From the UHGV virus genome UHGV-0129844: 10,383 bases of DNA; one strand, 5' to 3'. The notes below the pieces were generated by a model. It saw nothing but the letters and a program-made list of their open reading frames with translations, was not told where the DNA came from and did no database searches. How positions within the stretch are numbered: the first letter of the stretch is position 1; every line of letters begins with the position of its first letter. Positions 2,978 through 8,312 of the stretch are shown here, one piece after another. The position numbers were made by a program, and so were the translations under genes. Source of the DNA: a virus.

Positions 2978-3585
2978 GCGGCCTCACTTCTGCTATTTCG
3001 CAGGTCTTTGAGTTTCTGCTGATACTCCGCCTTGATGGCCCTGCACTCTTCGACAGTCCAGCGATGGCGGCTATGGTTTGATTCGATTTCGTCTACTGCT
3101 TCCTGCCCGATGCGGCTAATAAGTTCGACGCGATACGGAACGAGATTTCCGCTTTTGTGCTGGTTGCACACCACGCATTGCTTGTGAATATTGCGTTCAT
3201 CAAATCGGAGTTGAGGTGCCGCAGCAGTTGTCCGGTAATGCCCGGCATCCCACTGAGCAGACGTGAGCGTTCCGCACGAGATACATGGTAAATTGCGGTC
3301 TCTTTCTCTGATGAAGGCGTTTACGGCTTGTTGGGCTTGTTTAATCCAGTAACTGCGGGGCTTTAAGGCGAGTTTTCGAATCTTAAGTTTATCTTTCTGT
3401 TTCTGATCCTCTCGTCGTCGTTTCTTTTCTGCTGCTTTTTCCGCTTTTTCGCGTTCTTTACTTCGTCGTTCGAGTGCTATCTTTGTTCCACACTCTGGAG
3501 AGCACCACCACTGATTAGCGAATGCAGGGTGAAACCATTCCCGACATTCTTCGTTTTTACATCGTCTTCGCGCTGGTTTAGCCAT
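2974..3585 (-). CDS. ninG: NinG / Rap recombination-associated endonuclease, 203 aa
   Basis: [47 protein letters not shown]... matches lambda NinG and carries several Cys clusters. The ATG overlaps the ninF stop. Confidence 0.92.
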
Positions 3586-4451: not shown

Positions 4452-4894
4452 GCAGCCTTCCCTTTTCGTTGTGACCATTCATACTCTCGCCGGGAGTCAT
4501 CACTCCACCGCACGTTGCGCTCTGAGCCGAACCAGAACATGATTTCGATAAGCTCAGTCATGCTGGACTTTCGCATTTTGCTGGTACGCACGCCAAGCAT
4601 AACAACGCCACCGTCGATACCAGGCACACTTCGTTGCTCCAGTTTTTTGGTCTTAAGCCACAGGGCAGTGAACAGATCTTTCCAGTCTTCCGGCGCCAGC
4701 CGTTGACCATGCCATAGCACCTGACGCGAAACATCGTTCAGCATCGGCCACATACGGTCATTCTGCGCTTTGCTGCGTTTGGGTTCTCTAACGTGGACTT
4801 CGTGGGGTGACTTGTCGTCGATGGGTAGTGAGAGAATGGCGTCTATGGCGTTATTTCTGATTGCTTCGTTACGAAGCATGTATATTTGCTTCAT
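4448..4894 (-). CDS. ninB: NinB family recombination protein, 148 aa
   Basis: MKQIYMLRNEAIRNNAIDAILSLP...QNDRMWPMLNDVSRQVLWHGQRL...[20 protein letters not shown] resembles lambda NinB (orf146) in conserved blocks (QNR-W, DVSRQV-WHG, WSD-EW) and sits in the expected nin position. Confidence 0.82.
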   Translation of the reverse strand: MKQIYMLRNEAIRNNAIDAILSLPIDDKSPHEVHVREPKRSKAQNDRMWPMLNDVSRQVLWHGQRLAPEDWKDLFTALWLKTKKLEQRSVPGIDGGVVMLGVRTSKMRKSSMTELIEIMFWFGSERNVRWSDDSRREYEWSQRKGKAA

Positions 4895-5461: not shown

Positions 5462-5492
5462 AAATAAAAAGACCTGCGATTACCAGCAGGCC
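5462..5492 (-). terminator. tR2-like intrinsic terminator between the replication genes and the nin region
   Basis: Minus-strand RNA: GGCCUGC (5492-5486), loop UGGUAAUC, GCAGGUC (5477-5471), giving a 7-bp stem with one G.U pair, followed by UUUUUAUUU (5470-5462). Lambda has tR2 at the same position relative to the replication genes. Confidence 0.55.
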
Positions 5493-5521: not shown

Positions 5522-6958
5522 TCAGAATCCTCCTTTCTTCTTGGACTGCGGTTCCTCGCGTTCACGGCGGCGCATTTCAGCAGACTGTTGGTCTGTGTCA
5601 TAAATAGCGCCATTTGCCTGAATGCAATACACCGTGCCGGTATTGCCATGACGATTGAGGCGAAGGATTAGTTCGGTTTCACCAGGTGGAACACTGTCAT
5701 CAAAAGCACCTTCACGATGGATCCCCACCCAATAATCGCAATCCTGTTCAATCTGCCCTGTATCTCGTGAGTCACTTGGCAATGGGCGTTTATTGGTTCG
5801 GCTTTCCAGTGCGCGGTTAAGCTGTGTCAGAAGCACAACAACGCAATCAAGCTCTTTGGCAAGGTTCTTCAGTCCTTTGGTGATCATGCCGTAAGCAAGG
5901 TCGTTGCGATCGGCCTTTTCAGCGGTCATTAGTGTCAGGTAATCGACCAGAATCATGCCAACACATCCTTTTTCTCGCTTGATTCGACGGCTTTCGCTGA
6001 CGATTTGAGACAGAGATAATCCCGGCGTGTCGTCGATGTAAAGCAGGTCGATTTCACTCAAGCGATTGGCTGTTTCGATCGCCCTGTTGAAGTCACCATC
6101 GTAATCACCCTGATAGCCGTCATCAGCGTCATTTGTCGCCGGAAGGTAAAAAATATTCGGGTTAACACCTGACTTCTGTCCTACCAGTTTTTCCAGTATC
6201 TGGTCACCGGGCATTTCAAGGCTGAACATCAGAGCGGGCTTTTTCTCATGCACTGCGCAGTTGATTGCCATCTGGCTGTATAGCGTCGTTTTCCCCATCT
6301 TAGGGCGAGCGCCAATGACAAACAGAGAGCCTTTCACCAGGCCTTTCGGTGACAGCATCCTGTCCAGCGATGGGATCCCTGTGCTCATTCCTCGTTGTTC
6401 GCCTGACGGGTCAAATCGCTTCTCAAGGTCGCTAACCCAGTCTTCCATGACCTCACCAAATGAGCGAAGGCCGCGACGCGATCCGGTTTTTGCATGGTCT
6501 GTCAGTTGCGTGAAAATCGACTGAATAGCTTCGTACTTCTGCGTTGCAGTCATTCCGTTGCGGGAATAGAGCAATTCCGTCGCTTCAGTCATGCGGTTGA
6601 TGGCGTAGCGTTCCATTGCGGTTTCACGAACCTGCATTGCATAGGCAACGATGTTTGCTGCGCTTGGCGTGTTCTTTGCGATCTCAGCGATATAAGCAAA
6701 ACCGCCAACAGACACCGTTAACGATTTACGCTCCAGTTCATCGAAAAGCGTCAGGCCATCTACTGGCTTTTGCTCACGGTGCATTCTGGTTATTTCTTCG
6801 AAAATGATTTTGTGTGGTCGGCTGTAAAATGAATCAGGCTTCAGCATCGCCAGGACTTTCTGGACGCGCTCACTGCTGTCATCATCCAGAAGCAATCCAC
6901 CAATCACCGCCTGCTCTGCCTCGATGCTATGGGGCGGCGCATAAAAATTATCGGTCAT
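5522..6958 (-). CDS. DnaB-family replicative DNA helicase, about 478 aa
   Basis: Walker A motif GARPKMGKTTL, a DnaB-type N-terminal domain (SIEAEQAVIGGLLLD) and C-terminal RecA-like domain, similar in layout to P22 gp12-type phage helicases. The ATG at 6958 (MTDNFYAPP...) is preferred over the GTG at 6973 that the ORF track uses. Confidence 0.9.
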   Translation of the reverse strand: MTDNFYAPPHSIEAEQAVIGGLLLDDDSSERVQKVLAMLKPDSFYSRPHKIIFEEITRMHREQKPVDGLTLFDELERKSLTVSVGGFAYIAEIAKNTPSAANIVAYAMQVRETAMERYAINRMTEATELLYSRNGMTATQKYEAIQSIFTQLTDHAKTGSRRGLRSFGEVMEDWVSDLEKRFDPSGEQRGMSTGIPSLDRMLSPKGLVKGSLFVIGARPKMGKTTLYSQMAINCAVHEKKPALMFSLEMPGDQILEKLVGQKSGVNPNIFYLPATNDADDGYQGDYDGDFNRAIETANRLSEIDLLYIDDTPGLSLSQIVSESRRIKREKGCVGMILVDYLTLMTAEKADRNDLAYGMITKGLKNLAKELDCVVVLLTQLNRALESRTNKRPLPSDSRDTGQIEQDCDYWVGIHREGAFDDSVPPGETELILRLNRHGNTGTVYCIQANGAIYDTDQQSAEMRRREREEPQSKKKGGF

Positions 6959-7847
6959 CGTGTTCACCCTCACGAACTTTCAGGTAGGTATTATCGTTAA
7001 GCAGGAAATCAAATCCCTTTTTGTGCCAGACGGTTCCGCGTTGATGGTTTGGACGCTCTTCGAACATCCATCGGCAATTTTCGCCTACGTAGCTCAAATA
7101 ATTTCTCCAGTCCTGCATCGTGAACCCATGCCCGTCAAGCTGGCGGGTTATCACTCCGGCTTTGCGCCAGAACGTTCGGATCTGGTTTTTACGCTTGTCA
7201 TTCAGTGCGCGGATTTTTGGCGCTTCAGGAAGGATTTCGTGGTAAGCATCGACAACATCCTGACAGCTAACGGAAGGTTTTTTCTTGTCAGACTTTTTGT
7301 CTGCTGTGGCACTCTCTAATACGTCAGTATTAGAGATAATATTATTATATTCTTTATCTGTGGTAATTTGCTGGTAATCTGCTGGTACAGTATTGCTTAC
7401 AGGCATTGGTATTGCTGGCTTTGAGGTGGTAATTTGCTGGTAATCTGCTGGTACAAAATTTGACTGATAATCGTCATATTTCTCTACCGAGAAAACTGAG
7501 AATTTACCGTGTGAAACCCAGTCAATCATGCCGAGTTTTTTGAACTTTCTAAGCAGGTACTGAACGCGATCTGGTTTGAGTCCTGTTTCAAACGCCAGAG
7601 AGTTTCTACCGCCAAGTAGCTTCCCTCTGCCTACCAGAATTTCTCCTGCGTCAGTCATTACATACTCAGGCGTATGCTTTGCTTTGAGGATTAAGTGAAC
7701 CCACAGATGCGCTGCTTCTGCGTCCTTGTAAAACGGCACATCCATAATTTTACGGTGCAGCAAGGCATACCCCTTACCGCTGCTTTGATGCGGTTGTTGT
7801 AGCCTTCTGGCCTCTCTGGCTTCGGCTAGATTAGATATGTTACTCAT
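6948..7847 (-). CDS. Replication initiator protein (functional analogue of lambda O / P22 gp18; not lambda O by sequence), 299 aa
   Basis: It sits where O would be, directly after cII/oop and before the helicase. The ori-type iteron repeats lie inside its coding sequence and encode the repeated peptide [11 protein letters not shown] strong AAGGAG lies 7 nt upstream of the ATG. Confidence 0.78.
7361..7455. repeat. Origin-type iterons: two identical 29-bp direct repeats with nested GCTGGTAAT/GCTGGTACA sub-repeats, flanked by an AT-rich tract
   Basis: TGGTAATTTGCTGGTAATCTGCTGGTACA occurs at 7361-7389 and again at 7427-7455. The degenerate copy GGTATTGCTGG lies between them, and the AT-rich stretch GATAATATTATTATATTCTTTATCT lies at about 7335-7359. 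Confidence 0.7.
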
Positions 7848-7986
7848 GACCTTTCTCCTTCTGCATCAGCTTCACCTTTTCCAACTCAGCCCGGAATCGA
7901 CCAGGCTGCTTGAAGCTGGACAGGAAGCGATCACGTAGTATGTGTTTGTGAATTTTGTCCTGGTAAGGACTGAGTTGTTTTGTCAT
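7840..7986 (-). CDS. Hypothetical basic 48-aa protein (below the ORF track cutoff; hand-translated)
   Basis: Reverse complement reads ATG ACA AAA CAA CTC AGT ... = [49 protein letters not shown] strong AGGAG lies 5 nt upstream of the ATG. Its stop falls just inside the initiator start region. Confidence 0.4.
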
Positions 7987-7996
7987 AATTACTCCT
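7955..7996 (+). promoter_or_regulatory. PO promoter for oop RNA (approximate)
   Basis: The -10-like CATAAT at 7984-7989 lies 7 nt upstream of the oop 5' end. The -35 element is not confidently placed. Confidence 0.5.
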
Positions 7997-8073
7997 GTTG
8001 ATAGATCCAGTAATGACCTCAGAACTCCATCTGGATTTGTTCAGAACGCTCGGTTGCCGCCGGGCGTTTTTTA
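7997..8073 (+). ncRNA. oop: oop antisense RNA, about 77 nt, overlapping the 3' end of cII
   Basis: GTTGATAGATCCAGTAATGACCTCAGAACTCCATCTGGATTTGTTCAGAACGCTCGGTTGCCGCCGGGCGTTTTTTATT matches lambda oop RNA including its terminator hairpin and U-tract (memory). It overlaps the cII 3' end by about 55 nt on the opposite strand. Confidence 0.85.
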
Positions 8074-8312
8074 TTGGTGAGAATCGAAGCAACTTGTCGT
8101 GCCAATCGAGCCATGTCGTCGTCAACGACGCCCCATTCAAGAACAGCAAGCAGCATTGAGAACTTTGGAATCCAGTCCCTCTTCCACCTGCTGATCTGCG
8201 ACTTATCAACTCCCACAGCTTCCGCTGTCTTCTCAGTTCCAAGCATTGCGATTTTGTTAAGCAACGCACTCTCGATTCTTAGAGCCTCGTTGCGTTTGTT
8301 TGCACGAACCAT
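8019..8312 (-). CDS. cII: Transcriptional activator CII, 97 aa
   Basis: From the internal Met of the 117-aa track ORF: [51 protein letters not shown]...[10 protein letters not shown], which is lambda CII. The Shine-Dalgarno AAGGA lies upstream of the ATG at 8312. Confidence 0.95.

Follow-up and report, generated by a model that had tools for sequence, protein, structure and literature searches.

The viral genome UHGV-0129844 carries two long and perfect direct repeats in the middle of a gene for a putative replication initiator, and the question that this locus raises is whether the repeats mark a replication origin, as an earlier note on this DNA proposed, or whether they are there for reasons that concern the encoded protein, gene regulation or transcription. 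The window, by which we mean the whole stretch of 10,383 nt that was analysed, represents the early-right region of a mosaic lambdoid prophage, with Q, nin genes, replication genes, cII, cro and cI. The O-like initiator gene (Eru3A in the Stx-phage literature) lies on the minus strand at 6948-7847 and encodes a protein of 299 aa, with the presumed origin in its middle. It is followed by the gene for a phage DnaB-family replicative helicase (5522-6958, minus strand; "P" in VT2-Sakai and HK022, Eru3B in the Stx-phage literature), which overlaps the stop of the initiator gene by 11 nt when the limits are taken as annotated in VT2-Sakai, and whose product matches the Pfam models DnaB and DnaB_C as well as TIGR03600, phage_DnaB (583 bits, the cut-off being 499). 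We consider it highly probable that the repeats constitute the replication origin of the "Eru3" lambdoid module, situated in the linker-coding middle of the initiator gene.

Judged by its sequence, the window carries a lambdoid replication module of the HK022/HK620/VT2-Sakai type ("Eru3"). At the DNA level the initiator gene is 99.4% identical to its counterparts in VT2-Sakai, VT1-Sakai, mEp235 and others, and the encoded protein is 99.3-99.7% identical to the O proteins of VT1-Sakai, VT2-Sakai and HK620 and 99.0% identical to that of HK022, with CP-1639 falling within 99.0-99.7%. VT2-Sakai, HK620, HK022, VT1-Sakai, mEp235 and CP-1639 share with the window both of the 30-bp repeats, the helicase partner and the flanking orf48/cII/oop arrangement; the gene of the known phages differs from that of the window by 5 substitutions in 900 bp, none of which falls in the repeat blocks, the A+T-rich tract or the palindrome that are discussed below. 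GenBank record AP000422.1 (VT2-Sakai) has two misc_binding features, "ori iteron 1" and "ori iteron 2", that correspond exactly to positions 7426-7455 and 7360-7389 of the window (segments that are identical to 3479-3508 and 3413-3442 of L001, respectively), and NC_002730.1 (HK620) has a two-piece rep_origin whose 96-bp span coincides with this region of the window and has the same sequence. A "putative origin of replication" is also found at the equivalent position of the gene in the record of phage L (MW013503.1), whose initiator is 65% identical. The origin is thus already known, in that the repeats have been marked as those of an origin for about 25 years in the public records of identical phages, and these database annotations are predictions by analogy. 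Records of the VT2-Sakai/HK620 type mark two 30-bp "iterons", and neither the 11-bp units nor the palindrome described here are annotated in them. The module was named "Eru3" (Eru3A, Eru3B) by Llarena et al. in Stx2a phages that include VT2-Sakai (PMC8044961), in a paper that makes no mention of iterons or of an origin. Experiments on origins of this kind (binding, footprinting or mini-replicons) were looked for in the searchable literature and none were found. Of 5,426 complete E. coli genomes, 229 (~4%) contain the segment that covers the N-terminal domain and the origin, with a coverage of at least 80%. What we add is modest, and consists of the reading of the repeats as 11-bp units, the recognition of five unit classes that are tied to a candidate helix in the initiator, variants in block number and a covarying palindrome.

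Repeat blocks and the initiator that contains them

The direct repeat GTGGTAATTTGCTGGTAATCTGCTGGTACA occurs twice on the plus strand, at 7360-7389 and 7426-7455, with no mismatches and with starts 66 bp apart, and the perfect match ends at 30 nt on both sides. Such a 30-nt pair has a chance expectation of about 5e-11 in 10.4 kb. The earlier note had described perfect direct repeats of 29 bp; these are real, and they are 30 nt long, the note's coordinates having begun one base late. The nested sub-repeats that it had also pointed out are present as well, with four copies of the core TACCAGCA in the minus-strand reading of the two blocks. Over its full length the window holds six copies of this core, against 0.2 expected; none of 200 shuffles attained six, and outside the blocks the motif is represented only by two isolated 8-mers, with no other cluster of the iteron motif in the window. 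No DnaA boxes (TTWTNCACA) were found in the window.

Each 30-mer consists of three tandem 11-bp units of the form (G/T)TACCAGCA(G/A)A. Block 1 (7426-7455, minus strand; "ori iteron 1" of VT2-Sakai) has its units at 7445-7455, 7434-7444 and 7423-7433, which read TGTACCAGCAG, ATTACCAGCAA and ATTACCACCTC on the coding strand, and block 2 (7360-7389, minus strand; "ori iteron 2") has its units at 7379-7389, 7368-7378 and 7357-7367, which read TGTACCAGCAG, ATTACCAGCAA and ATTACCACAGA; in each block the third unit runs 3 nt past the 30-mer, to 7423 and 7357, respectively. Between the two perfect 30-mers lies a spacer of 36 nt (7390-7425, minus strand), fixed in length and variable in sequence, that can be read in the same 11-bp register, units 4-6 then occupying 7390-7422; units 4-6 have a mean pairwise identity of 0.59, as compared to 0.96 for the iteron units. 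The six units of the two blocks are direct repeats that have no internal inverted repeat or dyad symmetry, and their period of 11 bp amounts to approximately one unit per helical turn. It is more likely that the working unit is this 11-bp sub-repeat, three to a block, than the 29- or 30-mer. The blocks occupy codons 131-164 of the 299-aa initiator and, in agreement with what had been claimed for them earlier, a peptide of 10 residues is encoded twice in the open reading frame at 6948-7847.

The initiator itself matches phrog_345, "replication initiation O-like", with an E value of 1e-87; no Pfam or NCBIfam model for it scored above cut-off, and its RefSeq entries often bear the label "hypothetical protein". 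Its N-terminal domain (aa 1-130, encoded at 7458-7847, minus strand) has weak profile matches to winged-helix and replisome-organiser families and is presumed to be a winged-helix domain that binds the origin. From a low-confidence AlphaFold2 model (pLDDT 41.9), run on the single initiator sequence, we used only the pattern of secondary structure, which has helices at residues 80-88 and 92-104 and strands at 109-113 and 116-120, and in which the stretch with the duplicated peptide is without predicted structure. A candidate for the recognition helix is the segment at about aa 92-104, the second helix of the predicted helix-turn-helix. The C-terminal domain (about aa 179-299, encoded at 6948-7312, minus strand) is the presumed partner of the phage helicase. 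No solved structure related to the initiator was found.

The earlier note also called the initiator unrelated to that of lambda, and when judged by pairwise comparison and by curated families the two proteins do appear to be unrelated in sequence. A BLASTP comparison of the initiator with lambda O gave no similarity (E 4.8), and none of seven members of the initiator family matched Pfam Phage_rep_O (PF04492) even at E values up to 1, against 5.7e-36 for lambda O itself. Nothing was obtained when an alignment of the N-terminal domains only (A3) was compared to lambda O by hhalign. A match of the full-length alignment (A1) to lambda O by the same program was discarded, as it came entirely from the lambda-type C-terminal domain of a single member, the Erwinia phage EhrS_59. 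The word "unrelated" may go too far in other respects: residues 16-169 of lambda O match phrog_345 (E 5e-17), and phage genome papers, including that on phage L (PMC8022706), call such initiators distant homologues of O. The relatives of lambda O that were found in the viral contigs are only 99-100% identical copies, too uniform for a family profile. Remote homology between the presumed winged-helix N-terminal domain and lambda O is plausible.

Unit classes and mosaicism among related loci

Our comparison drew on 8 annotated phages together with 80 viral contigs that have genes for relatives of the initiator, with ~60 related loci being used. Every relative with at least two blocks has the 66-bp block spacing, the arrangement of 3 + 3 units and the same position within the gene. 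The units themselves fall into five classes, namely TACCAGC, the class of the window and of 25 further distinct sequences; TACCAAC, in L058; GTCCAAC, in phages L, HK75 and ENT47670; GTCCAGC, in the CobraSix group; and TGCCAAC, in ST512-KPC3phi13.1, EhrS_59, L078 and L086. The class is uniform within each phage, all copies changing in concert, and in L058 the G of the window's class is replaced by A in all five full units. Concerted change among repeats could partly come from gene conversion instead of selection.

Phages L, HK75, ENT47670, CobraSix and ST512-KPC3phi13.1 encode initiators of the same protein family (44-66% identity) with the repeats at the same position in the gene and, like the window, they have two sets of three 11-bp units that are 66 bp apart and are followed by an A+T-rich tract and a perfect palindrome. 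Their units are GTCCAAC, GTCCAGC or TGCCAAC, whereas those of the window are TACCAGC, and the N-terminal domain differs in step; these presumably represent different origin specificities. The candidate recognition helix follows the unit class, with RVQY accompanying TAC, (R/K)VKS accompanying GTC and R(V/I)KY accompanying TGC; the longer helix segment is DRVKSLLRKF or DNKVKSLLRSF with GTC and DR(V/I)KYLL-KF with TGC. In this way, a pair of helix residues corresponds to a pair of bases in the unit (Q-Y to TA, K-S to GT and K-Y to TG), and these correspondences may amount to a re-programmable code of origin specificity.

At third codon positions, the mean pairwise identity among ten relatives, all of the TACCAGC class, is 0.94 in iteron units 1, 2, 7 and 8, as compared to 0.64 in the N-terminal domain and 0.53 in the spacer, and selection on the iteron units appears to act on the DNA.

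The domains on either side of the blocks have been exchanged independently in mosaics. Relative to HK75, the nucleotide identity of the window is 54% in the N-terminal domain, 52-58% in the iteron blocks, 100% in the palindrome and 99% in the C-terminal domain, and relative to L048 the corresponding values are 93%, 97-100%, 79% and 76%. This mosaic pattern indicates that the N-terminal domain and the iterons travel as one module. The junction between that module and the one that contains the C-terminal domain lies in the A+T-rich tract; the match of IME10 to the window also stops at 7357. In the Erwinia phage EhrS_59, an N-terminal domain (47% identical) and units of the TGCCA type are joined to a C-terminal domain of the lambda-O type (phrog_277, E 2e-55), and a lambda-P-like loader follows the hybrid initiator. 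From this natural domain swap it can be concluded that the module of N-terminal domain and iterons is able to replace that of lambda.

The number of blocks varies among the relatives between one and four, each further block adding 66 bp, with one block in L047 (277 aa), two in the window (299 aa), three in L045 and in many proteins of 321 aa, and four in P0001 (343 aa). Variation of this sort is typical of iteron arrays. Given the single block of L047, two blocks may not be required, or alternatively the L047 prophage may be defective. A wide protein search gave 1,570 matches, and the 120 that were listed are all near-identical, 3- and 4-block variants included.

The A+T-rich tract and the palindrome

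The AT-rich tract that had been noted beside the repeats is indeed there, at 7337-7359 (23 bp, 91% A+T), where the gene has its G+C minimum, and it is presumed to be the DNA-unwinding element. The tract codes for an Asn/Ile-rich linker peptide, and both such a tract and an N/I-rich peptide are found in all relatives. Directly beyond it, at 7313-7336, lies a perfect palindrome that is absent from the earlier note; on the coding strand it reads TCTCTAATAC-tgac-GTATTAGAGA, with two arms of 10 bp each (7313-7322 and 7327-7336) around a 4-nt centre. The hairpin that it can form as single-stranded DNA comes to -9 kcal/mol on either strand, with z values of -4.3 and -4.8. A perfect inverted repeat of 9-10 bp with a 4-nt centre is present in all of the distinct homologous segments that could be scored (57/57). 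Among the relatives the centre is TGAC, TAAC or TAAA and the palindrome lies ~21-23 nt past the last block, and the 57 segments include at least seven different stem sequences. The type of palindrome goes with the downstream, C-terminal domain side of the locus and not with the iteron class.

When 11 stem types were aligned, a sample in which the independent events are few, 97.3% of the 110 cells were Watson-Crick pairs, nine of the ten pairs had changed on both sides and none had changed on one side only. None of 500 shuffles matched this result, and controls in which the alignment was slid gave 31-54% pairing. G-T or G-U intermediates were found in 0/110 cells. The changes in the palindrome alter residues of the encoded linker, which argues that selection acts on the nucleic acid, and the lack of G-T intermediates is more readily explained if both DNA strands are constrained than if an RNA hairpin is. 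On this comparison, the palindrome appears to be a conserved third element of the origin that is selected as a DNA structure.

A different role can be imagined for the palindrome and the T-rich tract, which together (7313-7359, plus strand) might lie outside the origin and serve as an intrinsic terminator for antisense transcripts or as a hairpin in mRNA. A consensus scan lists 7313-7336 on the plus strand as terminator-like, with the tail TAATATTATT, and the phage L record has a predicted terminator in the equivalent place and on the same strand. We nevertheless regard this explanation as unlikely, considering that the stem has only three G-C pairs and the tail is broken by an A, that no promoter-like sites were found in 6900-8100, that the covariation among the 11 stem types, with nine of ten pairs changed on both sides and no G-T or G-U cell, fits a two-strand DNA constraint better, and that the origins of lambda and P22 hold palindromes at the same place.

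As an element of the origin, the palindrome could be extruded as a hairpin or cruciform on opening of the DNA, and could then help to load the phage helicase or set the directionality of replication. P22 and HK97 also have a centre of the form T(G/A)A(C/A); SEN34 and HK225 have TGAC, and lambda has TGGC. The palindromes of the lambda type (lambda, PhiR30_1, SEN34 and HK225) gave no signal of covariation, being imperfect and nearly the same in sequence. We propose only tentatively, as something possible rather than probable, that the palindrome is a third element of lambdoid origins that depends on structure rather than on sequence and did not arise by chance from the coding of the linker and, separately, that the residues of the N-terminal domain helix and the bases of the units constitute a re-programmable specificity code. 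The Lamassu defence reportedly targets phage origins and palindromes (PMC12663957).

Comparison with other origins and a model for initiation

The earlier note had likened the locus to lambda, with ori iterons inside the initiator gene but with iterons of a different kind, and both the GenBank annotation and the comparison of related loci lend support to this view. In lambda the origin is inside the initiator gene, where it separates the part for the DNA-binding N-terminal domain from the part for the partner-recruiting C-terminal domain; the probable origin of the window has the corresponding position, and lambda, P22 and the window have in common the order of iterons, A+T-rich tract and palindrome. 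The classical papers on the origins of lambda, phi80 and 82 are said to have already given this tripartite layout. Lambda (NC_001416) has four annotated iterons of 18 bp with internal dyad symmetry, whereas the window has six direct units of 11 bp without it. The palindrome of lambda is a 12-nt inverted repeat, complementary at 11/12 positions, with a 4-nt centre (563-574/579-590 of L090). The partner of the lambda initiator is P, a loader of host DnaB, in contrast to the phage DnaB-family helicase of the window. The lambda origin is experimentally established, and the rep_origin of P22 is annotated as "similar to phage lambda".

P22 (gene 18/gene 12) and HK97 (O/P) resemble the window in that an initiator is followed by a phage DnaB-type helicase and the origin is within the initiator gene. 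In P22 gene 18 there are four dyad-symmetric repeats of ~20 bp, TTTACC-N5-GGTAAA, then an A+T-rich stretch and then CCCCC-TAAA-GGGGG; the four ~20-bp repeats and the lambda precedent were noted by the authors of the phage L paper (PMC8022706). HK97 has CCCCC-TAAC-GGGGG at the position of the P22 palindrome. Unlike that of the window, the N-terminal domains of P22 gp18 and HK97 O belong with lambda O, being 43% identical to its residues 19-152, and the iterons of both phages are sets of four ~20-bp repeats with dyad symmetry.

Direct repeats that are bound by monomers beside an A+T-rich unwinding element are also found in the iteron-type plasmids, such as those that depend on RepA of pPS10 or pSC101, pi of R6K or TrfA of RK2. 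The plasmid iterons are ~17-22 bp long, lie outside the rep gene and are bound by a winged-helix Rep protein. The repeats of the window are also direct, but they measure 11 bp and lie inside the gene, and the putative winged helix of its initiator is drawn from a low-confidence model and weak profile matches. No sequence relation was found between the system of the window and the replicons of iteron plasmids.

The reading of the repeats as an origin draws its support from several sides. VT2-Sakai and HK620 annotate these exact 30-mers as an origin; the units are out of frame, change in concert, are inherited with the N-terminal domain and have conserved synonymous sites; and the order of elements is shared with lambda and P22, the helicase gene adjoins and the number of blocks varies. 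If the units instead bound the initiator for the purpose of regulation, as a transcription roadblock in autoregulation, in copy control and incompatibility or in titration, initiation would take place elsewhere. Plasmid iterons do also serve in copy control, and in lambda the cloned ori iterons, in combination with oop, act in trans to inhibit replication of the phage (PMC3349717). Regulation in place of initiation is still very unlikely, given that the units adjoin the A+T minimum of the gene and the palindrome, in the order of the lambda and P22 origins, and that the window has no second cluster of the motif, only the 8-mers at 4579 and 5481. That the repeated linker peptide was duplicated and selected for initiator function, with no role for the DNA, is extremely unlikely: although the repeat is in frame (66 bp being 22 codons) and the duplicated peptide is encoded in every relative with at least two blocks, the 11-bp period within a block is out of frame, the three units being read in three frames and giving different residues because 11 is not a multiple of 3, synonymous sites are better conserved in the units than in the structured N-terminal domain (0.94 against 0.64), and the peptide is located in the stretch without predicted structure and differs freely from one class to the next, although the architecture of the DNA stays the same. 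Since the 11-bp period is out of frame, the peptide repeat is to be seen as a consequence of the DNA repeat, and the duplicated 10-residue peptide, part of a presumably disordered linker, would be its passive by-product.

With the repeats taken as an origin, a mechanism of initiation can be proposed. The N-terminal winged-helix-like domain would bind as monomers, in head-to-tail order, along the six 11-bp units and thereby form a nucleoprotein array, a mode of binding that we only infer, from the lack in these units of the dyad symmetry that characterizes the iterons of lambda and P22. The array would distort the DNA and melt the adjoining A+T-rich tract, the C-terminal domain would recruit the phage DnaB-type helicase that is encoded just downstream, in replacement of both the lambda P loader and host DnaB, and host primase and polymerase III would take over next. 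Rightward early transcription through the gene probably aids the opening, as it does in lambda.

The main outcome of this analysis is a confirmation of the existing annotation. The Stx2a prophage of E. coli O157:H7 Sakai has an origin of this type and, as the output of Shiga toxin is driven by phage replication, a correct map of the origin is practically useful. The comparative anatomy of the locus, with its 11-bp units, five classes that are tied to the N-terminal domain and covarying palindrome, could improve the annotation of such origins, and the five classes make up a natural set of orthogonal pairs of initiator and origin.

The palindrome beyond the A+T tract

Adjoining the A+T tract is a palindrome (7313-7336) whose 10-bp stem is perfect and encloses a 4-nt centre, and its position is kept in every distinct homologous segment amenable to scoring (57/57). 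At least seven different stem sequences occur among these 57 segments, and comparison of the homologues reveals compensatory changes at 9 of the 10 palindrome pairs, with no wobble intermediates seen in the homologous stems that were compared. The 4-nt centre recurs in unrelated types of origin (loci L172, L177, L090, L174 and L175), where the palindrome likewise follows the A+T tract. It reads TAAA in P22 (L172, ~1463-1478), TAAC in HK97 (L177), TGGC in lambda (L090, 563-590) and TGAC in SEN34 and HK225, and takes the forms TGAC, TAAC and TAAA within the HK022/L family. This recurrence could be a coincidence or could reflect a shared signal.

Iteron blocks and isolated iteron cores

The window carries two iteron blocks, as compared to one, three or four in natural variants (the viral contigs L045 and L047 and the proteins P0001 and P0002). 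These variants step by 66 bp, or 22 aa, such that the proteins with one, three and four blocks are 277, 321 and 343 aa long, respectively. Outside the origin, the iteron core TACCAGCA is found in isolation at 4579-4586 on the minus strand and at 5481-5488 on the plus strand, the latter ~35 nt beyond the stop codon of the helicase gene; both copies are probably chance matches.

The initiator gene and its upstream neighbours

Copies of the initiator family (6948-7847, minus strand, in the window) number in the thousands in public data, yet no Pfam or NCBIfam model scores above cut-off against it, and in some complete E. coli genomes the PGAP label for the initiator is "hypothetical protein". Overlapping the initiator start by 8 nt is a 48-aa ORF (7840-7986, minus strand) with counterparts that include orf48 of P22, gp53 of HK022, hkaW of HK620 and "DUF2740"; an NCBIfam search with this ORF returned no family match. 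Some RefSeq records name the counterpart "tail protein", which is an odd label. Inside the 3' end of cII lies a strong terminator-like hairpin of 12 pairs, six of them G-C, with a T-run (8043-8070, plus strand), and the sequence near it at ~7975-8000 matches what PMC3349717 quotes as the conserved promoter/5' region of oop. Together, these two elements have the appearance of a lambdoid-phage oop antisense RNA.

A hybrid initiator and the mosaic junction

The initiator of Erwinia phage vB_EhrS_59 (L009, 1486-3137) is a natural hybrid, which shares its N-domain type and 11-bp units with the HK022/L type, whereas its C-domain is of the lambda O type and is followed by a lambda P-like loader in place of a DnaB-type helicase. 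The match between phage IME10 and the window stops at 7357, within the A+T tract (7337-7359). This tract, with the last iteron on one side and the palindrome on the other, is the mosaic recombination junction between the two halves of the initiator.
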